In this document: positions 6,937 to 43,037 of the stretch, one piece after another | Position numbering within the stretch: the first letter of the stretch is position 1 | How the letters are laid out: every line of letters starts with the position of its first letter | Origin: Solirubrobacterales bacterium | GTDB lineage: Bacteria > Actinomycetota > Thermoleophilia > Solirubrobacterales > 70-9 | Assembly (NCBI GenBank): GCA_036266075.1 | Contig: DATANV010000015.1 | Coordinates: 52,686 to 116,685, forward strand | Length of the DNA: 64,000 nucleotides | Direction of reading: 5' to 3' | Translations under genes and position numbers: made by a program | The notes under the pieces: generated by a model | The model's database searches: none | The model's input: the letters and a program-made list of their open reading frames with translations, nothing else | What the model was told of the DNA's origin: nothing

Positions 6937-6955
6937 CGGCGGCTGGCTTGGCCGC

Positions 6956-7369
6956 GTGGCGGAAGAGCTGGAGATCGACGGTCGCCTCTCGATCCCACTG
7001 AGCGAGATCGAGCTGCGTGCGAGCCGCTCCTCCGGGCCGGGCGGGCAGCACGCGAACGTGACCGCATCGCGGGTCGAAGCGGTATTCGACGTAGTCGCCT
7101 CGACTGCGCTGGACGCGGCGCAGCGAGCACGGTTGAGCGAGCGGGCCGGGCCGGTGGTCACCGCCGTCGCACAGGAGGCGCGCGGGCAGGCGCGTAACCG
7201 CGAGCTGGCCCTGCAGCGACTGGCCGAGAAGATCGCGGCGGGCCTGCGGGTACCGCGCCGCCGCCGCGCGACCCGGCCAACCCCAGCGAGCCGCGCCCGC
7301 CGCCTCGAGCAGAAGCGCCGCACCGCCGAACGCAAGCGCACCCGCCGCCGCCCCGAAGCCGACGTCTGA
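6956..7369 (+). CDS. arfB: Alternative ribosome-rescue factor ArfB (peptidyl-tRNA hydrolase, GGQ)
   Basis: SSGPGGQHANVT GGQ motif plus a basic C-terminal tail. Confidence 0.88.
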   Translation: MAEELEIDGRLSIPLSEIELRASRSSGPGGQHANVTASRVEAVFDVVASTALDAAQRARLSERAGPVVTAVAQEARGQARNRELALQRLAEKIAAGLRVPRRRRATRPTPASRARRLEQKRRTAERKRTRRRPEADV

Positions 7370-7443
7370 TCGACGATCGGACGTGCCGGTGATTGACCGC
7401 CCACAGCGGTGTCTAACTACCGGCACGTGGCAGACTCGCGGCG

Positions 7444-7794
7444 ATGGCGAAGCGCAAGAAGCAACGCCGGCCGCGGCGGAAGGCCGAGACCGTCGACTAC
7501 ACCGACGCCGAGGGCAACGTCCTCACCCTGCGCCAGTCGCTCAGCCGCGGCACGATCGCCAAGATCGAAGTCGGCCCGGCGACCGCGGCGGCCACCCAGG
7601 ACGACGCCTGGCGTCGCCGCGTTGAGCTTCTTTTCGAGCGCCTGGCGGTCGGCTGGGAGGTGGCCGGCCTCCCAATCAGCGACCAGAAGATGCTCCTCGG
7701 TCGCTACCGGATGGCCGATCCCGCCACCCAGCAATGGGTTCGCGAAACGATCGACCAGCACATCGAGCGCTACATCCCCGAGCTGGCGCAGTGA
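7444..7794 (+). CDS. Hypothetical protein with basic N-terminus
   Basis: Protein-like composition (MAKRKKQRRPRRKAETVDYTDAEG...). No recognisable family. Confidence 0.55.
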   Translation: MAKRKKQRRPRRKAETVDYTDAEGNVLTLRQSLSRGTIAKIEVGPATAAATQDDAWRRRVELLFERLAVGWEVAGLPISDQKMLLGRYRMADPATQQWVRETIDQHIERYIPELAQ

Positions 7795-24119: not shown

Positions 24120-24157
24120 GCCCGTGGCGGGTCTCGGATGGCCGCTTTCGCTCCCAC

Positions 24158-24256
24158 GTAACCGTTCTGTCACCAAACGGCAACGATCCGGTGACACCGT
24201 GGATATGGCCATGTAACAGGCTCGTAGAAGTTCCGTGAACCGGCTTGACAGAGCCG
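24158..24256 (+). promoter_or_regulatory. Array of 11-nt phased direct repeats (GTnACn), PHO-box-like, with TTGACA at 24245-24250
   Basis: Consecutive 11-mers: GTAACCGTTCT, GTCACCAAACG, GCAACGATCCG, GTGACACCGTG, GATATGGCCAT, GTAACAGGCTC, GTAGAAGTTCC, GTGAACCGGCT, TGACAGAGCCG. The array ends ~50 nt upstream of the ATG at 24308. Confidence 0.55.
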
Positions 24257-26197: not shown

Positions 26198-26198
26198 C

Positions 26199-28220: not shown

Positions 28221-29841
28221 ATCGGCGACACTGGCGCTCGCGTCGGTCGCCGCCATCGTTCTTGCGGCATTGGTCGCCCCCGGCATGGCGTCGGGGGCGC
28301 TGATCTGGCGCCTGGAGCAGCCGCCTCCGCCGGCGGGAGTGCCGTTCAAGGTGCCTCTGGGGGCGCCGGGAGACCTCTCCTTCTGGGCTCCCAACAGGGG
28401 CCTGCTCAGCGTCGAAGGCAACAGCACGATCCCGCGCGGCCTCTTCAGCTGGAACGGTCAGAGCTGGCATCAGCTGGCGACCGTCTGCGGCGGGCCGGGA
28501 GACACGGCGCGGATCGCCTGGGCGGGCCCCGACGAGTTCTGGGTCCTCAGCGAACCGAGCCAGCCCCGGGCCGGCTCCGGCCTGGCTCTTTGCCGCTTCA
28601 AGGATGGCCAGGTGGTGGGCTCGTGGAGCACCCGGGTCGACGCCGCCGACCCATTCCGACAGATGCGCTCGGCCGCCTGCAACGGTGCAAACGACTGTTG
28701 GTTCGGCGGGGTCGGCTCCCAGGACGCCCTGGGCGAGCGGGTCGGCGCCTTTCACCTGCACTGGAACGGCAGCACGCTGGAAACCGTCTACGGGCCTCAG
28801 GGCCGGGCGGTCAGCGACATGGAGTTCCAGGCGGGCACGCTCTACGAGAGCACCTATGTCGGCAAGGCGGCCGAAGATCGCGTCGACCCGGTCGACCTCG
28901 CTGATCCGGAGCCGGTGCCGAGCCTTATCCACACCGTCGCCGGTCACAGCTTCGCGAACGATCCCTTCCTGCCGGCGCCCCACCCGGGCGTGCCCGAAGA
29001 CGGCACCGAGCTGCTGGCTCTCGACGGCGACGGCACCGACCTCTGGGCGGTTGGCGGCGGCGCTGCCTCGGGCCCTTCGGCGCCATCCGAAGGGGCGGTC
29101 GAACGCGCGCCCCTGGCCGCTCGCCTGGTCGCTGGCTCGTTCCAGGAGCTGAGCTTGAGCGGCGACGCCACCTTCGGGCCGACCGATCGCTTCGGTGACG
29201 TCGCCGCGATGCCCGGCAGCAGCGACGCGATGGTCACCGTCGTCCCCTACGACGAGCGGCGCAGCACCAACAGCAAGGCGATCGTCGCCAGCGTCGCCGC
29301 CGACGGGACCGTCTCGACGACAACGCTGCCCGCTTCGGGTGCCGGCCGCGGCAGCGCCGCCCGGATCGCCTGCCCGGCGCCGAACGACTGCTGGCTGGCG
29401 ACCTGGGCCGGTTGGCTCTTCCACTACGGCGATGGCACTCCGCAGCCGCTCGACACCGATCCCTTCTTCGAAGGCACGATCGAGTTCCGCCCCAACGAGG
29501 CGGCCGAACAGTTCATCCCCGACGTCCTGCCCGAAGACGACTCCCAGCTCTTCGCGCCGCCGCCGGTCGAACTCGAACAGGCGGCCGAATCGAGAACCCA
29601 CGTCAAGCGCCTGCCGCCGCTGCTGCGCAACGTGCATTCGCGACTGCGGGGCCTGACGTTGATCGTCACCTTCACGGTGACCCGCCGCGCCCGCGTCCAG
29701 CTGCTCGCCAAGCGCCGTGGCAAGACCGTGGCGCGGACGCCTCAGCGCACCTTCGCGCCTGGGCACCGGCGGCTGAGCCTGCATCTGAGTCGCGACCGCT
29801 ACCCGACTAACCTCGCCTTCCGCGTGAAGGCCCTCAAGTGA
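28213..29841 (+). CDS. Secreted protein with propeller-like (Ycf48/BNR-type) repeats and basic C-terminal module
   Basis: The GTG at 28213 overlaps the ftsH stop by 8 nt. Signal peptide [29 protein letters not shown]-terminus ...LTLIVTFTVTRRARVQLLAKRRGKTVA...GHRRLSLHLSRDR. Confidence 0.7.
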   Translation: MSRSATLALASVAAIVLAALVAPGMASGALIWRLEQPPPPAGVPFKVPLGAPGDLSFWAPNRGLLSVEGNSTIPRGLFSWNGQSWHQLATVCGGPGDTARIAWAGPDEFWVLSEPSQPRAGSGLALCRFKDGQVVGSWSTRVDAADPFRQMRSAACNGANDCWFGGVGSQDALGERVGAFHLHWNGSTLETVYGPQGRAVSDMEFQAGTLYESTYVGKAAEDRVDPVDLADPEPVPSLIHTVAGHSFANDPFLPAPHPGVPEDGTELLALDGDGTDLWAVGGGAASGPSAPSEGAVERAPLAARLVAGSFQELSLSGDATFGPTDRFGDVAAMPGSSDAMVTVVPYDERRSTNSKAIVASVAADGTVSTTTLPASGAGRGSAARIACPAPNDCWLATWAGWLFHYGDGTPQPLDTDPFFEGTIEFRPNEAAEQFIPDVLPEDDSQLFAPPPVELEQAAESRTHVKRLPPLLRNVHSRLRGLTLIVTFTVTRRARVQLLAKRRGKTVARTPQRTFAPGHRRLSLHLSRDRYPTNLAFRVKALK

Positions 29842-32800
29842 GCGGACCCGGGCAGGCCGGGCGCCTGATCGGCGCCGGGCTCGCCTTCCTGCTGGCAATC
29901 GCGCTCGCCCTGGCGACGGCCACCCAGGGCAGCGGTGCCGCCGCCCCCGGCGGCGTCGGTCCGCTGCCGCTGCTCGGCGTCGCCGATGCGCAGATGAGGC
30001 TGATGGGCACGGCGTCGGGGGGCGAGGCTTGGGGCTATCGGCAGCTGCCGCTCGCAGTCGGCGGGGTCGAAGCCGGCACGCGCCAAGTCCCCTTCGGCCC
30101 CCCGCAGGACAGCTCCGGCACGTCCCTGCAGCTCGCCTTCTTGCGCTACACGGAGGGCAACGGCTGGCGGGTCTTCGAGACGCCGGTCGACCGCAACGGC
30201 AACCCCTACCGGGGACCCGTCCCCAACCCGCTTTCGGCGCGGATCACGCCAAACGGGGGAGGGGTCCTGCTGGGCCGCGACGCGCACCGGCTGCCGAGCG
30301 ACCAGGTCGTCGTCCTCGATCACGACCCGGGCGGCTCGTGGCGGGCGCTGCCGACGCCGCCGTCCTCGGTGCTGTTGCCGGCCGAAGGCGAACGGCCGGC
30401 CGAGGCGCTCGCCGCCGATCACGGCTCGGGGGCCGTCGCGGCTGCCGCCTTCGACGAAGGCGGCCACACGGGGCTCTTCTTTGCCCCCCAGGAACGCTCG
30501 GTCGCCGATGCGGTGATCCATTTCGACGGCAGCGAATGGACTCGCGAGAAGGTCAAAGTGCCGGCGGGCTCCGAATCCGAATTCCATATCCTGGCGATCG
30601 CAGCCACCGGAGCCGGCAACGCTTGGGCGATCGCCGCGGCGGCCCCGATGCTCAAACGCTCCTTCGTCCTGCTGCAGCGCACCGCCGGCCCGGAAGGTCC
30701 CGAATGGGTCGAGCGCGGGATCGGCGCCGCGCGCTTCGCCGACGCCGACACACCGGAATTCGGGATCGAAGGTCTGGCGCCGATCGGGGGCGCCGCCCAA
30801 CCCCTGACCGTCACCCAGGACGGTGTCTGGATCGACCTCACGGCGAAGTTCGAAGGCGTCTCCAGCGACGCGACGGTCTACTACGACATCGGCGCCGGCG
30901 CGGTGATCGGCTCGTGGTGCGACGCGGACGCCTGCGACGAAGCCTTCGGGGCGAAGCTCTCGCGGCAGAGTGGCTATCGCAGCTTCGCCTGGCCCGGCTC
31001 GGGCTTCGGAACGCGGATCGTCACCAATCCGCTCGAACCTGGCGGCGGCGAAGAAAGCAACCGCGGCACCTACCTGCGGTTCGACGGTGGGGCATTCGCT
31101 CGGGTCCCCGGCGGCGGCGGCAACTTCCACGCGGGCGGGGCCTTCTCGAGCGTCGACAGCGGCTGGCTCGAGGGACCGGTCGAGATCTCCGCCAAGCGCG
31201 CGCCGGAAGCGCTGCGGCCCTGGCCGGTGACCCTGCGGGCGCCGCTCGCCGACGTCACCGGCGCCCCCGGGCAGCCGCCGGGGGCGCTCGGGTCGCAGGC
31301 GCTGGCGGTGGGCGCGAACGGCGCGGTCGCCCGCTACACGCCGGGGCGCGGCTGGCGGCGCGAGTACCTGACCACCGCCAGCGGCTCGGTCAGCAAGGCG
31401 ACGCTGCGCGGCGTCGCCTGGCCCGAACCGAATCACGCCTACGCCGTCGGCGACCTCGGCGCGATGTGGCAGTGGAACGCCGACGACGGCCTCTGGATCG
31501 CCGATCCCGGCGTGCCGATCGGCTTCGAAGGCAACCTGATGGACATCGCCTTCGATCCGGCCGACGCCAGCCGCGGCTACGCCGTCGGCAAGCACGGCGT
31601 CCTGTTGCGCTTCGAAAAGAGCTGGGAACCGCAGGCGCTGCCGCCGGGCTTCGACAGCGCCGATCTGACTTCGATCGCCTTCGCCGGCCGCGAGGCGATC
31701 GTCGCCGCCGGTGGCGATCTGCTGGTCAACGAGGGGGGCGTTTGGCAGGTCGATCCCTCCGCCCAGGCGTTGCTGGACAGCGTCCGCGCCGGCAATCCGA
31801 AGCTGCTTGCCGTCGCCGGCCTGCCCGACGGCGGAGCCGTCGCCGCAGGGCGCGACATCGTCATCGAGCGCGACGGCGGGCCGGGTTCGCCCTGGCGCTT
31901 TTCCAAGCAGCCGATCCTCGGCTCGACTGCGATTGCCGCCGCCGCGGTGCGGACCGACGCCGGCGTACGGGCGATCCTCTCCGTCGTGCCCCAGCTGGCC
32001 TACCCGCCGGCCGACGAACTGCCGCCCGAAGACCCCAACGTGCCGCCGCCGATCCTGCCGCCGTTCGCCCTGCCTGGTGACGGATACGTCCTGCGCGAGA
32101 CCTTCGACGGCTGGCAGGACGAGCAGCGCACCGCCTTCGCCGGCACCGGCTCGGACCGGCCGATCAAGAGCGACCCGACGACCGCCTTCCTGCTCGACTC
32201 GGCCGGCAACGGCTGGGCGGTAGGCGGCTGGAGCGGCGACGGCGACGCCAGCGGGCGCGGCTCCTCGGCCCGCGGTGGCGAAGGCGGCGCCCTGCGGGCC
32301 CGCGTGCGAACTGCGTCGATCGCCCGCTTTGGCGACGGTGCCGCCCCGCCGCCCGTCGAGCGCTCGGCGCCGGTGGCAGTGCCCGCCGGTCCAGCCCGCT
32401 TCGCCGTCGCCGGCAACGCTCAGTGCGAGCAGCCCTGCGCCGACCTGGCGCCCGAGGCTCTCGGGCCCGACCGCACGCTGGCTGTCGCCCTCGCCATGAT
32501 CAACGCGATGCGCGGCGGTGCCGGCCCGCGAGCCCTTCTCTACACCGGGAACCGCGTCGCGACCGGCCTCGACTTCGCCGACGGCGAACGCTACGCGGCC
32601 CTGCTGGGTGGGGTGCCGGGCCTGCCCGTCTTCCCGGCGCTGGGCTCCAGCGACGTCGGCGACGGCACTGGCAGCGACGCCTTCGCAGCTTCCTTTGCCG
32701 GCTTCCCGGCGCCGCTGGGCTCCGGCGCATCGCCACCGGGGATCTCCGTCGCAGGCATCCCCGGCGCCGCGCCAGGCCCTGGCGCCCGCACCCACTACGC

Positions 32801-34277
32801 CTTCGACAGCAGCGGCGACGGCGGCACCGTACGGATCGTCGTGATCGACAACTCGCGCGGCTCGCTGGCCGCCAGCGATCCCTTCCAGAACCCGTCCGAG
32901 GCACAGCTGCCCTGGCTCGAATCGGTGCTCGCCGATGCCCGAGCCAAGGGCATCCCGGTCGTCGTGATGGGCAACCGCAGCCTCAACTCCAGCTTCACGC
33001 CGAAGCTGAACGTGGCCAGCGACGCCGGCACTGTGGCGCGGGCACTGGTCGACGGCGGCGCCTCGGCCTACCTCTTCGATCGCCCGGAAGAGAACCGGGC
33101 GATGAGCATCCCGGCCGGTGGCTCGACGACGATCCCCAGCTGGGGCACGGGCACGCTCGGTTACCGCTCGCCGATCTCCGGCGCCGTCGGCCTCGAAGCC
33201 GCCGACTCGCTGTTCGGCGACAGCGGTTTCCTGTTGCTCGAAGTGAACGCCGCCCAGCGCGACCCCGCCAGCAACCGGGCGCCGGTAGGGGTGCGGCTGG
33301 TCCCGGTGATCCAGGACCTCTCGCTGGAAGCGATCGACGGCACCCTTCTGCACCGCTCGATCCCGGCGCTGTTCAGCGGCCTCGGCCGCCGGCCGCTCGG
33401 CGGCGACCGCTGGGGCGCCGCCGCTGCGGGCTCCTCGATCCCCAGCCCGGCCGGCGGCGACCCCTACACGCTCTTCCCGCCTGAGCCCTGCCTGGTCGCC
33501 GGCTGCGCCAACCGAGTCTCGCCGGAATACAGCTTCACCTCCTCGGATCCCGATATCGCCGACTTCGTCCGCCAGGACCCGAACTCGAACAACCTGCGCA
33601 AGCCCTTCCTCGACGCCAACGGCAAGGTCGCCACCGACAACTCCTCAGGCCTGCTCTGCCCGTTCAACGCCGGCACGACGACGGTCACCGTCAGCGCCGG
33701 CGGGCTCTCCTACTCCGAACAGGTGACTGTCCAGGGCGGCAGCGTGCAGCGCCCCTGCGGCACCCGGCCGCTGCGACCTGACCGCTTCGCGCGCAACGCG
33801 CCGGCTGCCGCGCCGCCGGCGCCCCCGCCGGCTCCCGCCCCCGCCGGCAGCCCGCCGGTCGAGTTCACGCCGCCGTCGCCTCCGCCCGCCTCGCCGGCGC
33901 CCCCGCCTCCGCCTAACCCAGTCCACGTCGTTCCGAACCCGCCCCTGGCGCCCGCCTTCTTGCCGGTCACCGCGGGCCTGATCGCCACCGTGCCGGCGGC
34001 GCTGTTGCCGCCGCCGCCGCCGGTAGTGCGGCCGCTGCCGCCAGGCGGCGCCCCGGCCCGCACCTACCAGGTCGAGGAACGCCGCGAAGAGGAGGCGGCG
34101 ACCGAGGAGTCGCAGGCCTTCTCACGGCACGAGCCCGGCGGCGAGGGCGCCGCCGTGCCGCCCTACCTGCCGGCGCTCGTCCTGCTGCTGGCACTCGGCG
34201 CCGCCTCGGTCCGCGGCGGCGGCGGCCGCCGCCGCGCGGTCGCAACAGCCAACGCTGCCTCTTTCCGTCGTCGCTGA
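29838..34277 (+). CDS. 1479-aa exported multidomain protein: propeller-like repeats, degenerate metallophosphoesterase-like domain, Big_2 Ig-like domain, Pro-rich stalk, C-terminal TM anchor
   Basis: GTGA overlap with the upstream stop. Signal peptide present. The metallophosphoesterase-like region FAVAGNAQ...LLYTGNRV...PALGSSD...HYAFD...VVIDNS...QLPWLE...VVVMGNRS has ligand positions substituted. Big_2-like SFTSSDPDIADF...NAGTTTVTVSAGG. Then PPAPPPAP... and PPYLPALVLLLALGAASVRGGGGRRR. Confidence 0.75.
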   Translation: MSGPGQAGRLIGAGLAFLLAIALALATATQGSGAAAPGGVGPLPLLGVADAQMRLMGTASGGEAWGYRQLPLAVGGVEAGTRQVPFGPPQDSSGTSLQLAFLRYTEGNGWRVFETPVDRNGNPYRGPVPNPLSARITPNGGGVLLGRDAHRLPSDQVVVLDHDPGGSWRALPTPPSSVLLPAEGERPAEALAADHGSGAVAAAAFDEGGHTGLFFAPQERSVADAVIHFDGSEWTREKVKVPAGSESEFHILAIAATGAGNAWAIAAAAPMLKRSFVLLQRTAGPEGPEWVERGIGAARFADADTPEFGIEGLAPIGGAAQPLTVTQDGVWIDLTAKFEGVSSDATVYYDIGAGAVIGSWCDADACDEAFGAKLSRQSGYRSFAWPGSGFGTRIVTNPLEPGGGEESNRGTYLRFDGGAFARVPGGGGNFHAGGAFSSVDSGWLEGPVEISAKRAPEALRPWPVTLRAPLADVTGAPGQPPGALGSQALAVGANGAVARYTPGRGWRREYLTTASGSVSKATLRGVAWPEPNHAYAVGDLGAMWQWNADDGLWIADPGVPIGFEGNLMDIAFDPADASRGYAVGKHGVLLRFEKSWEPQALPPGFDSADLTSIAFAGREAIVAAGGDLLVNEGGVWQVDPSAQALLDSVRAGNPKLLAVAGLPDGGAVAAGRDIVIERDGGPGSPWRFSKQPILGSTAIAAAAVRTDAGVRAILSVVPQLAYPPADELPPEDPNVPPPILPPFALPGDGYVLRETFDGWQDEQRTAFAGTGSDRPIKSDPTTAFLLDSAGNGWAVGGWSGDGDASGRGSSARGGEGGALRARVRTASIARFGDGAAPPPVERSAPVAVPAGPARFAVAGNAQCEQPCADLAPEALGPDRTLAVALAMINAMRGGAGPRALLYTGNRVATGLDFADGERYAALLGGVPGLPVFPALGSSDVGDGTGSDAFAASFAGFPAPLGSGASPPGISVAGIPGAAPGPGARTHYAFDSSGDGGTVRIVVIDNSRGSLAASDPFQNPSEAQLPWLESVLADARAKGIPVVVMGNRSLNSSFTPKLNVASDAGTVARALVDGGASAYLFDRPEENRAMSIPAGGSTTIPSWGTGTLGYRSPISGAVGLEAADSLFGDSGFLLLEVNAAQRDPASNRAPVGVRLVPVIQDLSLEAIDGTLLHRSIPALFSGLGRRPLGGDRWGAAAAGSSIPSPAGGDPYTLFPPEPCLVAGCANRVSPEYSFTSSDPDIADFVRQDPNSNNLRKPFLDANGKVATDNSSGLLCPFNAGTTTVTVSAGGLSYSEQVTVQGGSVQRPCGTRPLRPDRFARNAPAAAPPAPPPAPAPAGSPPVEFTPPSPPPASPAPPPPPNPVHVVPNPPLAPAFLPVTAGLIATVPAALLPPPPPVVRPLPPGGAPARTYQVEERREEEAATEESQAFSRHEPGGEGAAVPPYLPALVLLLALGAASVRGGGGRRRAVATANAASFRRR

Positions 34278-34284
34278 CGACGCG

Positions 34285-34740
34285 GTGAGCAAATCGCCGC
34301 GAAATCTTAGTGAGGGAGGCTTCGCGCTAGATCTGCGCTTGACCGTGCGGGCAAGGAGTACAAGAGACGTCGACATCGAGTGGCGTGCCAACGAGGCCGA
34401 GTTGCTCGATGCACTGCTCGACGCGACGAGTCACGATGCAGGCGACTTCTTCGTTTATCTCATTGAGAGGGTCGGCGCACCCGAGGACCTCCTGGGCGGC
34501 AGTCACCGCTTCCGGGTTTCGGCATCCTTGGCAGGACGTCCCTTCGAGATGTTCCTGCTCGATGTCGGCTTCCGAGCCGATGACGCGCTTGCCACCGAGA
34601 TCCTTCGCACCGAAGATCTCCTCAGCTTTGCGGGAATCGAGCCAGTCGAGGTCGACGCGATCTTGGCTGGTGATGTCCCAGCCGGGAGATGGGATTCCGA
34701 CGGCCGACGCTGGGTGCTCAGCGAATCCGCTCGGGGCTGA
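34285..34740 (+). pseudogene. Truncated AbiEii/AbiGii-family nucleotidyltransferase toxin fragment
   Basis: EGGFALDLRL...RSTRDVDIEW resembles the GGTAL...R.T.DiD motif. It is only 151 aa, lacks the usual N- and C-terminal parts, has lower GC, has no AbiEi partner, and overlaps the convergent gene's 3' end. Confidence 0.5.
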
Positions 34741-35065
34741 AGCGGTAGCCGATGCCGAAGTGGGTGTGGATGTAGCGCCAGTCGGGGGCGACGCTCTCCA
34801 GCTTGCTGCGCACGCGGCGTACGAGGACGTCCACCGAGCGGTCGCGGCGGCGCATCTCGCCGCCCCACATCAGCTCGTAGATCTCGGGCCGCTGGACGAC
34901 GCTGTCTAGACGCTCGGCGAGCAGGAAGAAGAGCTGGAACTCGCGCACGGTGAGGCCAGCGCGGCGCCCCTCGACCAGCACCTGGAGCTCCGTCGGGCGG
35001 ATCTCGACGTTGGCGATCCTCTGCCTGCCCTCGGGCGACGCCTGTGCCGATGGTGGAACGGCCAT
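34718..35065 (-). CDS. Stand-alone OmpR/PhoB-type winged-helix DNA-binding protein (no receiver domain)
   Basis: LTVREFQLFFLLAERLDSVVQRPEIYELMWGGEMRRRDRSVDVLVRRVRSKLE...IHTHFGIGYRF is a Trans_reg_C pattern. Total length is 115 aa. Confidence 0.8.
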   Translation of the reverse strand: MAVPPSAQASPEGRQRIANVEIRPTELQVLVEGRRAGLTVREFQLFFLLAERLDSVVQRPEIYELMWGGEMRRRDRSVDVLVRRVRSKLESVAPDWRYIHTHFGIGYRFSPERIR

Positions 35066-35146
35066 GTCGCCATAGCGTTTCTGACCCGTCTGGCGATGCG
35101 GTGAACCCGGTGTGTCGAAATTGAGAAAATTTGGATAACTGCGGGC

Positions 35147-37165
35147 CTAATGCCGGGCGAAAATCACGGCAACGGAGCCGTGGAGCCGCTTTCCGCCTCC
35201 CGCGAAGCCGACCTTGGCCCGGGCATGGAGTTCCGTGCCGCCGGCGACCTGCGCCCGCGCCTTGCCGTGCAGGCGCAGGACCAGACGCGCTTTGCCTTTG
35301 CGCCGCGGTCGGCTCCCGTCCTGCGCCAGCTTGCGTCCCTTCTTGCGGACGGTGGCCGTGAGGCGCCCGGCACCCGGCACCGAGACGGTCAGCACCACGG
35401 TCCCGTTGGCTGCCGAGCGCGCGCGCACCGACAGGCGGCGGCGGCCGAATTCTTCGATCGAGGCCGCGCCGCCGCGGCGTGCCGACGGCGGTGGGCCTTG
35501 CGCTGGCGGTTCGCTCTCGCGGGTGACGACGAAAGCATCGGGCCGGTCGTTGGCATCGCCGACGAACATGTTGGCTGCGAAGGACGAGAAGGCGATTAGC
35601 CCGGCATCGGAGGACAGCGTCATGTGCGGGTCGACGTCGCCGTTCGCGTCGCCGTCTTCAACCGAGTGGGTGACGCGTTCGACGGTATGTTCTTCGAGGT
35701 CGATCGCGTAGAGGTCGCGGACGTCGGCGATCGAGCGCGGTTCGCCGACGAGCTGCAGGACCGGCAGGGTGAAGGTCGTGCGCACGGTGGCCAGCGCCAG
35801 GTGGCGGCCATCCGCGGTCATCGCCAGTCCCTCGATCGAGGCGGCCAGCGCCGGGCTGGTCGAGGTGCCGTCGCGGGTCAGCTCGGTGGTCGCCGCCTTG
35901 CGGCTGAGGCCGGGCTTCATGCTGGTCAGGTAGAGGTCGAGGCCCGAGCCGGTGGTCACGTCCGGGCGCGGGCCGGAGCCGGTCAGGAAGGCGACGGTAT
36001 TGCCGTCGCCGCTCAGCACCGGCAGCTGCGAGGCGATGCTGGCCGGCAGCGACTCCTGGTCGGTCAGCGGCCCGTAGCAGGGGCCCGTCGAGGTCTGGTT
36101 GAAGCTCGTCGTCATCCCCGGGTTGGCCGCTTCCATCGCCGCACAGGTCGGGTCGTCGGGGTCGGCGATGCCGGTTATGCGCCGCGTCGGCGCCCCCGGT
36201 CCCGCCGCGATGCGGCGCCAGAGGTAGTAGTCCTCGCTCGCCGAGGTCGGCTCGCCGCGCAGGAAGCGCGTCTGAGCGCTTGCGTTGTCGCCGGTCCAGG
36301 CGACCGTCGTGCCGTCGGCGCTGATCGCCCCGCCGAGCGCGCCACCCGCCGGCTGTTGGGTCATCTGGCCCGTTTCGGGGTCGCGGCTGGCGGTGACGAG
36401 CGTCGTCCGCTGGGTCGCCAGGTCGCGGACGAAGAGCTGGCCGGCGGGAACGTCGGTCGTGGCCTCGGCCGGCAGGTCGGTGGGGGCGTCGGTGCGGAAG
36501 ACGACTCGGTTCCCGTCGGCGCTGATCGCCCCGCCTCGCGCGACCTCGGCGCCCGGATTGCTCCCGGGCAGCGAGACCGTTGGAGGCCCGTAGCTCGCCG
36601 GCGCTTCGCTGCCGTCGCGCGCCGAGACGAGGCGGTACGCGCACTGGCCGCCGCCGCTGCAGGCGCCGCCAGGGGGCAGCGGCAGGTTCATGTCGCGCAC
36701 GTAGGCGTCAACGTTTTCGTTGCCGTCGGCCGGGACCAGTTGCTGGGCGGTGGAGAAGGCGACGTAGCGACCGTCGCCGCTGACCGAGGGATTCGCCGCG
36801 CCGCGCCGTAGGAAGGCGTTGGTGCCTTCTTCGAAGAGGTTGCCGTCGGCGACCTTCTGTAACGCTCGAGTCCCCAGGTCGAAGCGGAAGACTCCGCCCG
36901 CGCGGTAACGGCCGGCCGGGTCGGCGTCCTCGTCGGCGAAGAAGTTGCGCGCTCGGGTCTGGAAGACGACGTAGCGCCCGTCGGCTGAGATCGCCGCAAA
37001 GCTCGTCGCGTCATCGCCCTCTTCGAGGCGGTTGTAGTCGGCGGATACCAGGAAGGCGCCGGGAACGGCGTCGAAACCGTTGTCGTAGAAGGCCGCCGCG
37101 GTCGGCGGGGTGAGGGCGCTGAGCAGGACGGCAAGCGCCAGGCCGGCCTTGCGGCGGCGCCTCAC
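35147..37165 (-). CDS. Secreted PD40/TolB-like beta-propeller repeat protein with basic C-terminal module
   Basis: Signal peptide MRRRRKAGLALAVLLSALTPPTAAA. Repeats ISADGRYVVF, VSGDGRYVAF, ISADGNRVVF, ISADGTTVAW, LSGDGNTVAF, MTADGRHLAL. C-terminus VVLTVSVPGAGRLTATV...GKARLVLRLHGKARAQV. The GTGA start overlaps the upstream stop. Confidence 0.75.
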   Translation of the reverse strand: MRRRRKAGLALAVLLSALTPPTAAAFYDNGFDAVPGAFLVSADYNRLEEGDDATSFAAISADGRYVVFQTRARNFFADEDADPAGRYRAGGVFRFDLGTRALQKVADGNLFEEGTNAFLRRGAANPSVSGDGRYVAFSTAQQLVPADGNENVDAYVRDMNLPLPPGGACSGGGQCAYRLVSARDGSEAPASYGPPTVSLPGSNPGAEVARGGAISADGNRVVFRTDAPTDLPAEATTDVPAGQLFVRDLATQRTTLVTASRDPETGQMTQQPAGGALGGAISADGTTVAWTGDNASAQTRFLRGEPTSASEDYYLWRRIAAGPGAPTRRITGIADPDDPTCAAMEAANPGMTTSFNQTSTGPCYGPLTDQESLPASIASQLPVLSGDGNTVAFLTGSGPRPDVTTGSGLDLYLTSMKPGLSRKAATTELTRDGTSTSPALAASIEGLAMTADGRHLALATVRTTFTLPVLQLVGEPRSIADVRDLYAIDLEEHTVERVTHSVEDGDANGDVDPHMTLSSDAGLIAFSSFAANMFVGDANDRPDAFVVTRESEPPAQGPPPSARRGGAASIEEFGRRRLSVRARSAANGTVVLTVSVPGAGRLTATVRKKGRKLAQDGSRPRRKGKARLVLRLHGKARAQVAGGTELHARAKVGFAGGGKRLHGSVAVIFARH

Positions 37166-39159
37166 CCGACCCGCACCTTGCGCCTCAGCGTTGCCGTGTT
37201 GCCGGCCCGGTCTTTCGCCTTGACGACGATCGTGTAGAGGCCGGGCTTGGCGTAGGAGTGGTGGCGCGCGACCGCGTTGGGCCCTTTGGCCTTGCCCCGC
37301 CCGCGCCGCCGCGACGCGGCGGCGCGGTGTGGCGCAGACCCCGAGGCACTGGCACCGCGGTCGCCGAAGGAGATCTTCACTCCACCCCGCTTGAAGCCCG
37401 AGCTTGCGCGGCGGGCGCCGTCGAGGACCCGGATAGCGACCCGGCTGCCGCGGCGACGCAGCCGCACCCGCGGCGCCCGGCGGTCGATCAGCAAGGCCTG
37501 CTCACGGCTACCGGTTTCCTGCCTCGCGTCGTCGATCGCGAAGACCTGCAGGCGGTGCCGCCCTTCGCCGGCCTTGCCGCTGGAGAAGACGGTGTGCAGC
37601 TTCCTGGTCGGCTTGCTCACCGGCTGGTCATCGATGCTGACCGAGTACCTCAGCCCGCCGATCGCGTTGGCCGCCGCTTCCCAGGAGACTCGCAGCTCCT
37701 TCTTGCGCTGCCAGCCTTCCGGCGCTTCGACCAGCATCGGCTCGGGTGGTGCGTCGATCGTCGCCGCGGCGATCTGCGCCGCGGCACCGCTTCCTTGCTG
37801 CCAGGCGACGATCGCGTCGCCGAGGCCCGAGCCGGCCAGGGCAAGTCCGCCGACCGTGCCGCCGACCGGGGTGCTGAGCGGGGCCGATTCGCTGCGACCG
37901 TCGGCCGCGACTTCGCGCGCCGCGACGGCGCCGCTGCCACCGCGCTGCTCCTGCCAGGCGATCGCCGCGGCACCGCTCTCGGCGACGTCGAGCTGCGGTT
38001 CGCCGGCGATCGCGCTGCCGCCGTCGTCGATTCGCGCCGTCGGCCCGATCGCGGCGTTGTCGCCGCTCGTCCAGAGCGTGGCGGCGCCGCCGGCAAAAGC
38101 AGTGCCGAAGCCTCCTTCGGGGTCGACGGCGACGCTTGGAACGCCGAGGCCGCCCCGTTCGCCACCGTCGGCGAGACGCGGGCCGAGGAAGGCGGCGGCC
38201 CCTTCCGCGAAGGCGTCGGGGATCTCGTTGACGAATGCCCGCGGACCGCCGATCTTTCCCGCCTGCCCGGGGAGCTGGCGCAGCGCCACCGCCGCCTGGC
38301 CGAAGCCGGCGACGTCGAGCGAGAAGGCGTCGGCGGCGCCGCGCAAGGGGACTCCTTCCCAGCTGGATGGGCTGACCAGCAGCGGCACGCCGAAGGTCCC
38401 GCCGAAGACCCGCCGGGCCCAGACCCGGTTGACGAATTCATCGTCGGGCTCGCGCCAGGCGACGAGCGCGTTGCCGTTGACGTCGACCCCGATCTTCGGC
38501 CCGGCGGCGGCGGTCGGCACCGGCATCGGGATCGCCGGGTTGCGGTCGAGGGAATTGCCGAGGACCGACCAGAGGCGGTCTTTGTAGCGGGCGACGCGCA
38601 CGTCGATGCCCAGGTAGCCGGGGGGGTTCGCCGTGCTGTTGTCGGTGATCACCAGATAGGTCAGATACGCCTGGCCGCCGGCGTTCATCGCCAGGTCGGG
38701 GAAGCTGGCGGTCGCTTCACCGACGTTGAGGTCGACCGGAACCGGCGCCTCGAACCCGGTTGCGCCGGGGTCGAGCGTCGCCGAGAACATGCGGTCGTTG
38801 CCGGCGCCGAACTCCTGCACCCAGGTGAGGAGCAGGCGACCGCCGTCGCCGGCCGCTATCCGCGCCCAGCTCGAGTCGAATTTCTGGCCAATGTCGACCC
38901 GCTGCGGTGCGCTCCAGCCGGCGCCGAAGCGGGCGACGAAGACGTGGTTGCGGCCGCCTTCCTTGCGCAGGTAGACGAGGCCGCCGGTCCCGTCTTCTGC
39001 CATCGCCGCGTCTTCGATCGCCACCACGTCACCGCTTGGCCCGTCCACCATGTGGACCGGGGAGATCGCCGCCGCGGCACGCGATGGGGCGACGAGGCAC
39101 GCCACCACTAGCAAAGCCGTCAGGAGCGGCGGCAAGCGCAGCGGTACGCGGTCGCGCAT
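37162..39159 (-). CDS. Secreted repeat protein with C-terminal PKD-like Ig domain
   Basis: The ATG at 39159 gives MRDRVPLRLPPLLTALLVVACLVAPSRAAAA. Recurrent ...A(L/I)VAW(R/Q)E... strands. C-terminus HHSYAKPGLYTIVVKAKDRAGN (PKD signature). Confidence 0.7.
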   Translation of the reverse strand: MRDRVPLRLPPLLTALLVVACLVAPSRAAAAISPVHMVDGPSGDVVAIEDAAMAEDGTGGLVYLRKEGGRNHVFVARFGAGWSAPQRVDIGQKFDSSWARIAAGDGGRLLLTWVQEFGAGNDRMFSATLDPGATGFEAPVPVDLNVGEATASFPDLAMNAGGQAYLTYLVITDNSTANPPGYLGIDVRVARYKDRLWSVLGNSLDRNPAIPMPVPTAAAGPKIGVDVNGNALVAWREPDDEFVNRVWARRVFGGTFGVPLLVSPSSWEGVPLRGAADAFSLDVAGFGQAAVALRQLPGQAGKIGGPRAFVNEIPDAFAEGAAAFLGPRLADGGERGGLGVPSVAVDPEGGFGTAFAGGAATLWTSGDNAAIGPTARIDDGGSAIAGEPQLDVAESGAAAIAWQEQRGGSGAVAAREVAADGRSESAPLSTPVGGTVGGLALAGSGLGDAIVAWQQGSGAAAQIAAATIDAPPEPMLVEAPEGWQRKKELRVSWEAAANAIGGLRYSVSIDDQPVSKPTRKLHTVFSSGKAGEGRHRLQVFAIDDARQETGSREQALLIDRRAPRVRLRRRGSRVAIRVLDGARRASSGFKRGGVKISFGDRGASASGSAPHRAAASRRRGRGKAKGPNAVARHHSYAKPGLYTIVVKAKDRAGNTATLRRKVRVG

Positions 39160-39249
39160 TGGCAGAAGCTTGCTCGCCGCCGGCGCGAAAGATGTGACCA
39201 AGGAGATACCAAGTGGTTACGCGCGCGGCCACGCCTGCCGTGCGGCTGC

Positions 39250-39293
39250 GTTACCAGTTCTTATCCGGACAGTCACGTCGCGTTCACCTCCCT
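39250..39293 (+). promoter_or_regulatory. Four 11-nt phased PHO-box-like direct repeats in the divergent region between pstS and the 39159<-37162 operon
   Basis: GTTACCAGTTC, TTATCCGGACA, GTCACGTCGCG, TTCACCTCCCT. The last unit contains the exact GTTCACC core (39282-39288). The array ends 70 nt upstream of the pstS ATG. Confidence 0.6.
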
Positions 39294-39362
39294 GCCGCTG
39301 GCCGACTCGACACTTGCTTCGCTGCCCACTGTCCCGAACCCGTCACCAGGAGTGACCATCAG

Positions 39363-40175
39363 ATGAACTTCCCACGCCCGCTGGCCGTCTTCGCGGCCCT
39401 GGCTCTCGGCGCTTCGCTGCTGGCTCCAGCCGGAGCCACCGCCAAGCCGACCATCACGATGAGCGGCTCGACCTCGGTCGCGCCGCTCGCTTCGCTGCTT
39501 GCCAAGAGGTACCTGCAGGTCTGCGGCCACTGCGTCAACTTCAAGCTGCTGCAGGGGGGCTCCGACATCGGCGTCGCCGACGCCGCCGCCGGCCGGGTGA
39601 CGATCGGCAACTCCTCGCGCGATCCGAAACCGAGCGATCCGGGCGGGCTCGTCTTCACCAAAATCGCCCGCGACGCGGTCTGCATCGTCACCAACAACGC
39701 CAACCCAGTCCCGACCATCGACCAGGCGGGAGTGCAGGCGATCTTCGGCGGCGGCATCCGCACCTGGAGCAGCGTTCCGGGGGCGACCCAGCGCGGCACG
39801 ATCGACATCTCCGTCCGCACCCCCGGCTCAGGTACCCAGGACGCCTTCCAGCGCATCTTCATGGGCACGACCAAGGTGTTCGGCGGCGCCAGCCAGAAAA
39901 CGTCGAACGGACTGGTCCAGCAGGTGGTCAAATCGGACCCTGCGGCTGTCGGCTACGTCTCGCTCTTCTTCACCCAGGGCGTGCACGCGATCCCCTACCA
40001 GGGCGTCCCCTGCACGTTGCGCAACGCCAAGTCCGGCCAGTACGGCGGCTCGCGCAACTTCTACATGGTTACCCGCGGCGCACCGAAGGGCGCAGCCAAG
40101 GCGTGGATCAGCTGGATCACGCACAACAGCGCCGCGGCATCGGTGATCGGCACGAACTGGGTACCGCTTCACTAG
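39363..40175 (+). CDS. pstS: Phosphate ABC transporter substrate-binding protein PstS
   Basis: AGGAG lies before the ATG at 39363. Signal peptide present. Motifs ITMSGSTSVAPL, GGSDIGV, RTPGSGTQDAF. Confidence 0.9.
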   Translation: MNFPRPLAVFAALALGASLLAPAGATAKPTITMSGSTSVAPLASLLAKRYLQVCGHCVNFKLLQGGSDIGVADAAAGRVTIGNSSRDPKPSDPGGLVFTKIARDAVCIVTNNANPVPTIDQAGVQAIFGGGIRTWSSVPGATQRGTIDISVRTPGSGTQDAFQRIFMGTTKVFGGASQKTSNGLVQQVVKSDPAAVGYVSLFFTQGVHAIPYQGVPCTLRNAKSGQYGGSRNFYMVTRGAPKGAAKAWISWITHNSAAASVIGTNWVPLH

Positions 40176-41173
40176 TGAGCGCGGGCGGCGCGGACGCGGG
40201 GCAGGCGGACCGCACGGACAGGCGCGCCGAGCTGATGCTCGGCGCGCTCTCCGCGGTGGTTTTGCTGCTGATCGCGTTCATGATCGTCTTCGTCTTCTCG
40301 AAGGCCTGGCCGTCCTTCTCGCACAACGGTCTCGCCTGGTTCGGCCCCGGCGGCAACGTCGACGAACAGCTGACTGCGATCTTCAACTCGCCGTCGAACC
40401 CCAGCCAGTACGTCTACGCCCTGCACGCCTGGCCGCTGCTCTACGCAACGGCGCTGATCACCGGCGCTGCCGTCTTCCTGGCGACGGCGATCTCGCTGCT
40501 CTCGGCGATGTTCATCGTCGAGTTCGCACCGGCCTGGCTGGCCGGGATCCTGCAGCCGGTCATCCGCCTGTTGGCCGCGGTCCCGTCGGTGATCTACGGC
40601 CTGATCGGCCTGCTGGTGCTGGTGCCCTTCGTCGGCAACCAGGTGATCTCCGGCGCCGAAAAGGAATCGGTGCAGTTCGTGATCCAGCTCGACGGCACCA
40701 GCGTGTTGGTCGGGGTGCTCGTCCTCACCGTGATGATCACGCCGATCATGGTCGCGATCGTCAGCGACGCGCTGCGCTCGGTTCCGCGCGGCTGGACCGA
40801 GGGCGCCGCGGCGCTCGGCGTCAACCGCTGGCGGGCATTGCGCACGGTTGGGCTGCGGGCCGCCCGCCCCGCGATCGTCGCCGCCGCGGTGCTCGCCACG
40901 GCGCGGGCGCTGGGTGAGGCGATCATGCTTTCGATGGTCTCGGGCTCGGTCGGCTTCGCGCCGAACCCGCTTGATGGCGTCACCTTCTTCTTCGAGCCGG
41001 CGCGCACCTTGGCGGCGACGATCGTCGACCACGCCGACGAGCTCTCGGTGACGCCCTCCGGCCAGACGATCTACGCCTTCGCGGCGATCCTGCTGATCTC
41101 CAGCGCCTTCCTTTCCTTCGCCGGCTGGGCGGCGCGGCGCTCGATGCGCAAATACACGCTGCAGGCGCACTAG
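40175..41173 (+). CDS. pstC: Phosphate ABC transporter permease PstC
   Basis: The GTG overlaps the pstS stop by 1 nt. Six-TM permease with an EAA-type loop (EGAAALGVNRWRAL). Confidence 0.88.
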   Translation: MSAGGADAGQADRTDRRAELMLGALSAVVLLLIAFMIVFVFSKAWPSFSHNGLAWFGPGGNVDEQLTAIFNSPSNPSQYVYALHAWPLLYATALITGAAVFLATAISLLSAMFIVEFAPAWLAGILQPVIRLLAAVPSVIYGLIGLLVLVPFVGNQVISGAEKESVQFVIQLDGTSVLVGVLVLTVMITPIMVAIVSDALRSVPRGWTEGAAALGVNRWRALRTVGLRAARPAIVAAAVLATARALGEAIMLSMVSGSVGFAPNPLDGVTFFFEPARTLAATIVDHADELSVTPSGQTIYAFAAILLISSAFLSFAGWAARRSMRKYTLQAH

Positions 41174-41175
41174 CC

Positions 41176-42144
41176 ATGAGCGCCTACGCCGAAAGGATCC
41201 GCCTCACCGGGCTCCTCGATCGCCTGCGAGGCAACGACTCATGGAGCATCGGCGACCGCGTCGGCCTGGCGCTCGCCTGGGCGGCGGGGATCCTGCTCTG
41301 CCTGATCGCCGCCGCGATTGTCCTCTACATGCTCTTCCGCGGCCTGCAGTACCTCAGCCTCGAAGACCTCTTCAGCCACCCTGAGGCCGGCCTCGGTGGG
41401 GGCAGCAGCGGCGGTTTCCTCGACGCGGTCGAGGGGACGCTGCTGGTCGCCGCCCTCGGCACCGTGCTGGCGGCGCCGCTCGGTGTCTCGATCGCCGTCT
41501 GGCTGAGCGAGTACGGCCGTCCGGGCTGGCTGGCGCGGGCCGTCGAGTCGGGGGTCGAGATCGTCGCCGGCACGCCCAGCATCGTCCTCGCGATCTTCGG
41601 CCTGTTGGTCTTCCAGCAGAGCTTCTTCGGCCTCTTCTCGCCGGTCGGCGAAGGGGCGACGCCGCTGGGTCGCTCCTTCGTGATTGCCGGGGCGATGATG
41701 TCGCTGATCGCGCTGCCGCTGGTCGTCGGCGCCACCCGCGAGGCGCTGCAGGCGATCCCGCGGCACCTGCGCGAGGCCTCCTACGCACTCGGCAAGGACC
41801 GGGCCTCGACCATCCGCCGCGTGCTGCTGCCGGCCTCGCGGCGCGGCATCGGCACCGGGATCACGCTCGGCATGGGGCGGATCGTCGGCGATACGGCGAT
41901 CGTCTTCATCCTGCTCGGGGCGACGCTGCGCTTCGAACCGAACGGCGGCGTGCCGGTCTGGGACGTGCTGACCGGCAACGGCAGCACGCTGACCACCTTC
42001 GTCTACAACAACTCGCCGGCGGGCGAAGGCGGCGCCCCGGAGAAGGCCTACGCCGCGGCCTTCGTGCTGCTGCTGATCGTCCTGGTGCTGAACTTCATCG
42101 TCGACCTGATCACCCGTGGTAGGGGGGCCTCGTGGACTCGATGA
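41176..42144 (+). CDS. pstA: Phosphate ABC transporter permease PstA
   Basis: EAA loop REASYALGKDRASTIRRVLLP. Position in the pst operon. Confidence 0.88.
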   Translation: MSAYAERIRLTGLLDRLRGNDSWSIGDRVGLALAWAAGILLCLIAAAIVLYMLFRGLQYLSLEDLFSHPEAGLGGGSSGGFLDAVEGTLLVAALGTVLAAPLGVSIAVWLSEYGRPGWLARAVESGVEIVAGTPSIVLAIFGLLVFQQSFFGLFSPVGEGATPLGRSFVIAGAMMSLIALPLVVGATREALQAIPRHLREASYALGKDRASTIRRVLLPASRRGIGTGITLGMGRIVGDTAIVFILLGATLRFEPNGGVPVWDVLTGNGSTLTTFVYNNSPAGEGGAPEKAYAAAFVLLLIVLVLNFIVDLITRGRGASWTR

Positions 42145-43037
42145 GCGTGCCGCCGCCGGTGCGGCGGATTCGCGTCGAGGAGGCGCCGACCGTCGTCCCG
42201 CCGCCCGCCGGGGGAAACGGCCATGGGCCGGCCGGGCAGCCGGCGCCGCAACTGCGCCGCATGGCCCGCGCCGAGACGGTGCCCGTCGAGCGCATGCGGA
42301 CCGAGGAGCTGAGCATCGCCTACGGCAGCAAGCTGGCCGTCGACCGGGTCTCGTTGAGCGTCCGCCAAGGTGAGGTGCTGGCCCTGATCGGGCCCTCGGG
42401 TTGCGGCAAGACGACGCTGCTGCGTTCGCTCAACCGCCTCGTCGACTTGACCCCCGGAGCGGTGCGCGGTGGCCGCATCCTGCTCGACGGCGAGGACGTC
42501 GACCTCTACGACGCGACCTTTCTGCGGCGTCGCGTCGGGATGCTCTTCCAGCAGCCGAACCCCTTCCCGATGAGCATCTTCGACAACGTCGCCTACGGCC
42601 TGCGCGAGCGCGGCTCGAAGAAGCCGGCAAAGCGCGAGCTGGAGCCGGCGGTGAGTGAGGCTCTGCACCGCGCCGGCCTCTTCGAGGAGGTCAAGGACAA
42701 CCTCGACCACCCGGCGCTGGCGCTCTCGGGTGGCCAGCAGCAGCGCCTCTGCATCGCCCGCTCGCTGGCCGTGCGCCCGGAGGTACTACTGCTCGACGAG
42801 CCCTGCTCGGCGCTCGACCCGATCTCGACCCAGACGATCGAGGAGACGATCGTCGCGCTGCGCAGCGAGATCGCGATCGTGATCGTCACCCACAACCTGC
42901 AGCAGGCCCAGCGGGTCGCCGACCACGTCGCCTTCATGTACCTGGGCGAGATGGTCGAGTACGGCGAGGCGGCGCAGGTCTTCAGCTCGCCGGTCGTCGA
43001 GCGCACCCGCGAGTACGTCAGCGGGGGCTTCGGATGA
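42141..43037 (+). CDS. pstB: Phosphate ABC transporter ATP-binding protein PstB
   Basis: ATGA overlap with pstA. GPSGCGKTT, LSGGQQQRLCIAR, LLLDEPCSALDP. An alternative GTG start lies at 42132. Confidence 0.92.
   Translation: MSVPPPVRRIRVEEAPTVVPPPAGGNGHGPAGQPAPQLRRMARAETVPVERMRTEELSIAYGSKLAVDRVSLSVRQGEVLALIGPSGCGKTTLLRSLNRLVDLTPGAVRGGRILLDGEDVDLYDATFLRRRVGMLFQQPNPFPMSIFDNVAYGLRERGSKKPAKRELEPAVSEALHRAGLFEEVKDNLDHPALALSGGQQQRLCIARSLAVRPEVLLLDEPCSALDPISTQTIEETIVALRSEIAIVIVTHNLQQAQRVADHVAFMYLGEMVEYGEAAQVFSSPVVERTREYVSGGFG

Follow-up and report, generated by a model that had tools for sequence, protein, structure and literature searches.

The stretch of Solirubrobacterales DNA analysed here, 64,000 nucleotides (nt) from contig DATANV010000015.1 and hereafter the window, carries on its minus strand a gene for a stand-alone winged-helix protein of the OmpR/PhoB type, 115 amino acids (aa) long and devoid of a receiver domain, which we refer to as wHTH. 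This gene lies behind two genes for large exported proteins of 665 and 672 aa, which are themselves divergent from a pstS-pstC-pstA-pstB phosphate-transport operon on the plus strand. The window has a GC content of about 70% and belongs to a genome of 2.49 Mb that is 94.5% complete; in a search of sequencing runs, the region was found only in the source soil DNA metagenome. A first reading made from the letters of the DNA (hereafter the sequence-only reading) had described three minus-strand open reading frames, the first two coupled by a 4-nt overlap and the last coding for an effector domain and nothing else. All of this was confirmed, the overlap (GTGA, 37162-37165, in which the TGA of the 665-aa gene meets the GTG of the next one) being read directly.

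Domain content, distribution and age of the wHTH gene

The sole Pfam domain recovered in wHTH was Trans_reg_C (PF00486; 68.1 bits for a cut-off of 26.2), which covered protein residues 34-109 and model positions 2-77 of 77. The effector-domain structures of VicR, WalR and PhoB aligned to wHTH from residues 14-17 through 109-111. No Response_reg match was obtained with Pfam; about 17 residues precede the effector domain, and the reading frame upstream of the gene closes after 27 codons, in a stretch that is occupied by the promoter array described below. wHTH therefore lacks the N-terminal REC domain with a phospho-acceptor Asp by which two-component response regulators are defined. Neither is it an orthologue of PhoB or PhoP, its scores against the corresponding NCBIfam equivalogs being under the cut-offs (TIGR02154, 42.3 bits for 296; NF053854, 51.9 for 270; NF007546, 38.6 for 471). 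It could not be assigned to the SARP family, since it has no BTAD domain and stops 6 residues past Trans_reg_C, nor to the membrane-anchored regulators of the ToxR/CadC type, since its 115 residues, which end in GYRFSPERIR, contain no hydrophobic segment.

A homologue search limited to proteins of 63-201 aa returned 1,747 proteins. The best 120 of these were almost all 111-127 aa long, typically about 115 aa, and 74-97% identical. The dN/dS ratio of wHTH against seven orthologues was 0.15-0.32, and its GC content at third codon positions (GC3 = 0.91) was like that of the adjoining genes. In a maximum-likelihood (ML) tree of 48 DNA-binding domains, the stand-alone proteins formed one clade (support 98/96), composed of a wHTH group (98/93, 23 rows from four families), which broadly followed the taxonomy, and of a group of second small paralogues. 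Outside Solirubrobacterales, the search of the class gave full-length regulators only, with at most 47% identity, and no stand-alone forms. The close homologues were labelled Solirubrobacterales and their carriers are nearly all uncultured, the sole cultured organism among the best 80 genome matches being Svornostia abyssi J379, whose stand-alone homologue of about 133 aa is 59% identical (L117, NZ_CP088295.1:2687324-2687608). We found no description of a stand-alone Trans_reg_C family of this kind in the searchable literature.

The sequence-only reading had itself pointed out that its proposal would fail if wHTH were a truncated remnant, that is, the leftover of a two-domain response regulator after loss of the receiver. 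The presence of a full-length paralogue in the same genome speaks for such an origin. It is refuted by the nearly uniform length of the best 120 homologues, by the well-supported stand-alone clade that broadly tracks the taxonomy over four families, by the dN/dS and GC3 values, and by the DNA upstream of the gene, which is a conserved promoter and holds no receiver-coding debris; we give this origin practically no credence. Judged from these comparisons, wHTH is best described as a real stand-alone gene encoding an old, selectively maintained, receiver-less effector.

The orphan regulator aRR, the phased arrays and the wHTH promoter

Eight Trans_reg_C regions are present in the genome. By sequence, the nearest relative of wHTH (51% identity over the whole DNA-binding domain) is a 261-aa protein encoded at 6680-7465 on the minus strand of contig C37, the orphan OmpR/PhoB-type response regulator that stands beside pstSCAB-phoU in Solirubrobacterales and that we label aRR. 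At this second phosphate locus (G000 contig C37, L004, 955-7465), aRR is directly followed by pstS2-pstC-pstA-pstB-phoU-ppx, so that the tie between the receiver-less effector and the Pho system suggested in the sequence-only reading was borne out through its closest paralogue. The receiver domain of aRR is divergent (24 bits below the Pfam cut-off), and the receivers of its orthologues retain the Asp, the Lys and usually the Thr. A histidine kinase adjoins all five other OmpR-type regulators of the genome and none adjoins aRR. Matches to aRR were obtained in 119 of the 121 sampled genomes of the order, wHTH being accessory by comparison.

In the ML tree, wHTH, the second small paralogue and aRR were separated from the five other OmpR-type regulators (94/90). 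The consensus of the recognition helix is nearly identical in the wHTH clade (DRSVDVfVRKVRrKL) and the aRR clade (DRSVDVFVRKLR.KL), and the wing consensus YIHTHFGvGYRF is common to both; it is thus reasonable to expect that wHTH would bind the same boxes as aRR. Systematic differences between the two clades were found in the helix 2-3 loop (WGGxMxxRD in wHTH, WGYxMAHGD in aRR) and in helix 1. The second receiver-less paralogue, distinct from wHTH, lies between aRR and pstS2 in several genomes and there, too, a phased array was found upstream. We also searched for the true PhoP/PhoR pair among the kinase-paired OmpR-type regulators and obtained no clear candidate: NCBIfam scores failed to separate PhoB, MtrA, YycF and RpaB among these five proteins and were all below the cut-offs. 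As regards aRR as a possible GlnR orthologue, its best solved relatives were PrrA, BaeR, RpaA, RegX3 and PhoP, and not GlnR.

To describe the phased arrays, we used a position matrix built only from arrays located elsewhere in the genome, each region being left out in turn, and ranked about 5 million genome positions. The motif consists of 11-bp-phased units with a TTCAC(A/C)/GTnAC-like core. The left-out array regions each ranked between 1st and 13th, which argues that the arrays are not due to chance. Arrays of three to five units precede pstS, pstS2, the PstS-like gene, aRR, the 665-aa gene and wHTH. PHO boxes are made of 11-nt direct repeat units, with GTTCACC as the core in Streptomyces (PMC4415409), and the arrays agree with this description, with at least two phased 11-nt repeats that have a conserved 6-7-nt core and lie at or upstream of the predicted -35 region of phosphate-uptake genes. 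An independent scan match was also obtained at C37:883, just after ppx. It falls in a four-unit array on the minus strand (C37 ~850-900; GATAACC, GTTCACC, GTTCCCC, TTTCACA) upstream of an unannotated open reading frame (C37:2-793, minus strand), which is a candidate further member of the regulon.

The gap between the 672-aa gene and wHTH measures 81 nt and holds a four-unit array. Its consensus on the coding strand, GTTAWCC-N4-YTTCYCM-N4-CGWCACM-N4-GTTCACC, was recovered at 22 of the 23 orthologous loci, which belong to four families; at the only locus without it, the wHTH gene lies 50 nt past phoU. A hexamer of the form nAnnnT occurs exactly 16 nt past the fourth 11-mer in 19/23 loci (TAGNTT in one family), a geometry whose chance is about 2% per position, and is followed at a distance of 5-10 nt by an in-frame start codon in 18/23; from this spacing a leaderless wHTH mRNA is predicted. 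The geometry of the module does not vary with the gene upstream of it, which may be the PD40 gene (that of the 672-aa protein), uppP, aRR, an aspartate kinase gene or some other neighbour. Because the same array, hexamer and start codon are found behind unrelated neighbours, the 81-nt gap reads as a promoter and not as an operon spacer, and the wHTH gene would form its own transcription unit under a conserved box-dependent promoter. If transcription starts about 7 nt past the hexamer, the promoter-proximal pair of boxes would be centred near -41.5, as for a class II activator. In a wider check on 80 further public loci, arrays with a score of at least 20 were detected upstream of 32 of the 42 wHTH-type and 33 of the 37 ambiguous stand-alone matches. 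Scans of 34500-35400 and 39050-39450 with consensus promoters and terminators found nothing, a result that is uninformative in actinobacterial DNA of 70% GC.

Neighbouring genes, synteny and the accessory island

The coordinates of the genes and arrays are collected in Table 1. For the two large proteins, the sequence-only reading had proposed a 666-aa exported protein with a PKD-like C-terminus and a 672-aa propeller of the PD40/TolB type. The first does exist as an exported protein, but it is likely 665 aa long, from the ATG at 39159 (kept in the related loci L001 and L003) of an open reading frame that extends over 37162-39201 on the minus strand, and its PKD/Ig-like Pfam matches are below threshold and confined to the last ~30 residues. 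The second has an N-terminus resembling a signal peptide (MRRRRKAGLALAVLLSALTPPTAAA) and reaches 29 bits with PD40 (cut-off 20.9), but no individual repeat passes. With such thin Pfam support, the labels "PKD-like" and "PD40-like" are both weakly supported. On the other side of the intergenic region, the product of pstS (39364-40175, plus strand) matched PBP_like_2 and the PstS family TIGR02136, whereas pstC and pstA were identified as BPD_transp_1-type permeases by homology to Pfam-scanned pst loci of relatives.

Table 1. Coordinates of the genes, arrays and promoter elements discussed in the text.
Feature	Position	Strand	Evidence or remark
wHTH gene, 115-aa stand-alone OmpR/PhoB-type winged-helix protein without receiver	34718..35065	-	Pfam, homologues, tree
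Putative -10 hexamer AACGCT of wHTH	35074..35079	-	16 nt past last repeat unit, 8 nt before ATG
wHTH array, four 11-nt direct-repeat units GTTATCCAAAT, TTTCTCAATTT, CGACACACCGG, GTTCACCGCAT	35096..35139	-	leave-one-out rank 4-5
672-aa exported protein, weak PD40/TolB-like repeats	35147..37165	-	Pfam PD40
665-aa exported protein, PKD/Ig-like C-terminus sub-threshold	37162..39159	-	signal-peptide-like N-terminus
665-aa-gene array, three 11-nt units CGTAACCACTT, GGTATCTCCTT, GGTCACATCTT	39189..39221	-	genome-scan score 17.3
pstS array, units cgTTACCagtt, cTTATCCggac, aGTCACGtcgc, gTTCACCtccc	39249..39292	+	leave-one-out rank 7 of ~5 million
pstS-pstC-pstA-pstB, second phosphate ABC transporter without phoU	39364..43037	+	PBP_like_2, TIGR02136, ABC_tran
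Phased arrays before the PstS-like 629-aa gene cluster	24157..24250	both	leave-one-out rank 13
PstS-like 629-aa, FtsH, 541-aa and 1479-aa genes	24308-34277	+	in relatives, directly adjoin the 665-aa and PD40 genes
pstS2 array	contig C37		near perfect: TTCACA x3 and more, 11-bp spacing; pstS2 promoter at C37 6531-6690
aRR array	contig C37		two inverted units before the regulator gene
Second receiver-less paralogue	L035:6495-6824; L036:13220-13528; L051:9674-9964; L052:1108-1395	-; +; -; -	sister clade to wHTH in the tree

According to the sequence-only reading, four phased units lie in a control region shared by the secreted-protein operon and pstS. The four units are present, with cores GTTACC (39250), TTATCC (39261), GTCACG (39272) and TTCACC (39283) at steps of exactly 11 bp, but they belong to the promoter of pstS and are followed after 16 nt by GACACT (39309-39314). 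The 665-aa gene is faced by a separate three-unit array, downstream of which come 16 nt, CAAGCT (39167-39172), 7 nt and the ATG. Neither this array (39221 to 39189, minus strand) nor the four-unit array of wHTH (35139 to 35096, minus strand) had been noted in that reading. Alignment of the intergenic region with L001 and L003 resolved two separately conserved blocks, each with a single array, and the two arrays point in opposite directions. The block of the pstS array is almost identical in L001 and L003 and its flanks have diverged; the two arrays lie 0.4 and 2.2 kb apart in these loci, respectively, and the insert in L003 contains a phosphoesterase gene (PF04185, phospholipase C-type; L003:1841-3700) with its own phased array. 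The supposedly shared control region is, on this alignment, two promoters. At 9 of 14 loci (window included), the array of the 665-aa gene scored at least 13 with the same succession of array, 16 nt, nAnnnT and start codon. A PF04185 gene was also observed near the wHTH gene of locus L002.

We recovered in the relatives a common gene order, in which pstBACS is followed by the divergent 665-aa gene and then by the PD40, PstS-like 629-aa, FtsH, 541-aa and 1479-aa genes, these six being co-directional. wHTH lies 1-9 kb past the 1479-aa gene, usually in convergent orientation, and aRR-pstS2CAB-phoU often comes next. The window differs from these loci (L055-L061) by a single inversion, common to L001 and L003, of the segment that runs from the 629-aa gene through wHTH. 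It is this lineage-specific inversion that placed wHTH directly behind the PD40 gene. Of the 12 cluster loci that we examined, 7 have the 665-aa gene divergent from a pstS operon with the PD40 gene behind it. Genes of aRR and/or pst-phoU occur within ~12 kb of wHTH in 14/23 loci from four families, the wHTH gene standing directly after phoU in L038 and L046 and directly after aRR in L037.

Together, the second pstSCAB and the 665-aa, PD40, PstS-like, FtsH, 541-aa and 1479-aa genes make up an accessory island. Its distribution is patchy: the PD40 gene was found in 22/121 genomes and that of the 541-aa protein in 21/121, essentially the same genomes, from five families, and strong orthologues of the 665-aa gene in ~20/121 genomes of the order. 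The phylogenetic profile of wHTH against the secreted proteins, which the sequence-only reading had put forward as a check, was positive: a strong PD40 orthologue was found in 15 genomes, 14 of which also have the wHTH clade, although the counts lack phylogenetic independence. In eight genomes, the wHTH clade is present and the island is not.

A few other features of the neighbourhood were recorded. The 1479-aa protein (29838-34277, plus strand) contains a metallophosphoesterase-like stretch with replaced metal ligands (VVVMGNRS, YLFDRPEEN), and its Pfam scan gave only a sub-threshold BNR/Ycf48-like match. Between the convergent 1479-aa and wHTH genes lies an AbiEii-like fragment (Pfam 23.8 bits; window 34285-34740, plus strand) that overlaps the 3' end of wHTH by 23 nt. 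It is missing from L001, where the two genes are 8 nt apart. In the long-read assemblies of L003, L041, L048 and L062, the large exported-protein genes are split into many frame-shifted pieces, which are probably assembly indels and not pseudogenes.

Proposed role of wHTH and comparison with known systems

With moderate confidence, we interpret wHTH as a phosphorylation-independent, dosage-controlled co-regulator that would act together with aRR on the same PHO-type boxes. It would probably add a signal-independent layer to the phosphate-starvation response. When isolated, the effector domain of PhoB needs no phosphorylation to bind DNA and to activate, and wHTH is expected to bind 11-bp-phased direct repeats of the (G/T)T(T/C)AC(C/A) type. 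In the proposed sequence of events, a signal-dependent regulator (aRR or another PhoP-like protein) would turn the wHTH promoter on, and wHTH, having no receiver to keep it inactive, would then fill the same boxes according to its amount. It could in this way sustain or amplify the expression of the phosphate-uptake genes and of the exported-protein island, by feed-forward combined with positive autoregulation; an alternative outcome would be that it tunes expression through competition with aRR. Whereas the paralogy, conservation and domain content of wHTH, its linkage, the arrays and the promoter geometry were observed, its binding to DNA, the sign of its effect and the responsiveness to phosphate are inferred.

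Several points weigh against this interpretation. The helix 2-3 loop of PhoB contacts the sigma factor, and since this loop differs consistently between wHTH and aRR, wHTH may lack the ability to activate altogether. A further point is that the boxes look like GlnR-type GTnAC sites, and their predicted response to phosphate comes solely from the genes downstream of them. Their reader could be aRR alone or else a kinase-paired regulator, four of which match PhoB and MtrA about equally well in NCBIfam. In the wider sample, about a fifth to a quarter of the wHTH-type genes have no detectable array. These include that of Svornostia abyssi J379, the only cultured example found, which for lack of an upstream phased array is a poor model for the wHTH promoter. 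Finally, read-through from the PD40 gene into wHTH is possible, no terminator having been found in the gap.

Such read-through would be the rule if wHTH were, as supposed in the sequence-only reading, simply the last of three co-transcribed genes under one control region shared with pstS. The three genes are indeed co-directional, just 81 nt separate wHTH from the PD40 gene with no terminator-like hairpin found in between, and the arrangement is the same in L001 and L003. Under the usual view of an operon, the 4-nt overlap of the first pair would fit, and the second gap is an 81-nt promoter-like module. We nevertheless consider this reading improbable: this module, with its conserved array, hexamer and start codon, is also found behind unrelated neighbours, the PD40 gene is followed by the PstS-like and FtsH genes and not by wHTH in 7/12 cluster loci (L055-L061), wHTH was brought behind the PD40 gene by an inversion, and the presumed common control region resolves into two separable arrays. 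It is somewhat less unlikely, and in our opinion still doubtful, that wHTH is a regulator specific to the accessory island, with which it would travel, the arrays being its own operators and their likeness to the aRR boxes reflecting common descent only. This would account for the presence of the wHTH clade in nearly all strong-PD40 genomes, the 541-aa protein occurring in nearly the same 21 genomes, for the position of wHTH 1-9 kb past the 1479-aa gene in 13/23 loci, and for the strong/weak TTCTC/strong succession of units and equal hexamer spacing that the 665-aa and wHTH promoters share. Against it stand the non-independence of the co-occurrence counts and the eight island-free genomes, in which the wHTH gene either sits beside uppP in the vicinity of aRR-pst-phoU or comes immediately after phoU; moreover, a recognition helix and wing so close to those of aRR make a separate operator specificity unlikely.

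We attach a comparably low probability to wHTH being a competitive antagonist, unable to recruit RNA polymerase, which would compete with phosphorylated aRR for the boxes and cap the response by delayed negative feedback. A near-identical reading head combined with a helix 2-3 loop that is consistently different and more basic would suit such a role, the box-dependent promoter would have wHTH induced by the very response that it then damps, and AfsR and PhoP overlap and compete at PHO boxes in Streptomyces (PMC4415409). However, wHTH retains residues that are important for activation by PhoB, namely the W and G of the loop and the D just ahead of the recognition helix. The isolated PhoB effector domain, for its part, activates and does not repress. 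Lastly, it is conceivable, although we regard it as a long shot, that the phosphate response of Solirubrobacterales operates without a dedicated kinase-regulator pair. aRR would then nucleate on long box arrays, and wHTH and the second small paralogue would extend mixed head-to-tail filaments over arrays of 3-8 units. How large the response becomes would depend on the dosage of a DNA-binding domain that activates itself and is translated from a leaderless mRNA, not on phosphorylation stoichiometry, the whole amounting to a natural "split" response regulator with signal and output on paralogous genes.

The OmpR/PhoB family is the largest of the response-regulator families, and its textbook mode of control is phosphorylation of the receiver. 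A natural, bare effector kept by a whole bacterial order, paralogous to the local phosphate-linked regulator with a nearly identical DNA-reading surface, and placed under boxes which it presumably binds, departs from this mode. wHTH further shows linkage to the two pst loci and to the Pho-box-controlled exported-protein island, including FtsH. If it does bind the boxes, it would offer a simple, testable case of a two-component output combined with a signal-independent, dosage-driven element, which might serve as a memory, an amplifier or a cap. A defined regulon and a promoter grammar made up of the array, 16 nt, the -10 and a leaderless start would also become available for abundant and almost uncultured soil actinobacteria. 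The interest of wHTH resides in the circuit.

The domain and the type of box are both known already, as is the notion that an effector fragment can be constitutive, and wHTH is not a new kind of protein nor are its boxes a new kind of DNA element. A truncated PhoB reduced to its effector domain is constitutively active and is the mechanistic precedent for the function that we propose. The domain content of wHTH is identical to that of this laboratory truncation, but the latter is an engineered fragment, whereas wHTH is a natural, conserved gene whose own promoter is predicted to be regulated. wHTH shares its winged-helix effector domain with PhoB (Escherichia coli), PhoP (Streptomyces and Bacillus) and RegX3 (mycobacteria), and the structures of the PhoB DNA-binding domain, 1GXP and 1QQI, aligned to it with E values of ~4e-8. 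As with the PHO boxes of these regulators, its candidate targets are 11-nt direct repeats with a GTTCACC/TTCACA-like core, located over the -35 region before pstS (PMC4415409). Unlike them, wHTH has neither receiver nor partner kinase and would be an accessory paralogue, not the primary regulator, with its own gene under box control.

Another parallel is AfsR, a Streptomyces SARP whose DNA-binding domain is of the OmpR type and whose binding overlaps and competes with that of PhoP at the promoters of afsS, pstS, phoRP and glnR (PMC4415409). Like AfsR, wHTH is a second, receiver-less OmpR-type protein, putatively acting at pst promoters with PHO boxes. AfsR differs in being a large multidomain protein (BTAD, NB-ARC, TPR) that is controlled by Ser/Thr kinases and has its own recognition sequence; wHTH consists of the bare domain, is closely paralogous to the local regulator and has nearly the same recognition helix. 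GlnR of actinobacteria and ChxR of Chlamydia are OmpR/PhoB effectors that bind phased direct repeats without phosphorylation (PMC10235972, PMC3960148), as we propose for wHTH. They keep a (degenerate) receiver for dimerisation whereas wHTH has none, and the GlnR structures are not its closest solved relatives. What appears to be new is the natural arrangement, in which a conserved bare effector paralogue lies within the regulon of its full-length sibling throughout an order and seems to be under the control of that regulon, together with a fixed promoter grammar and the linkage of wHTH to an accessory island of exported-protein and FtsH genes.

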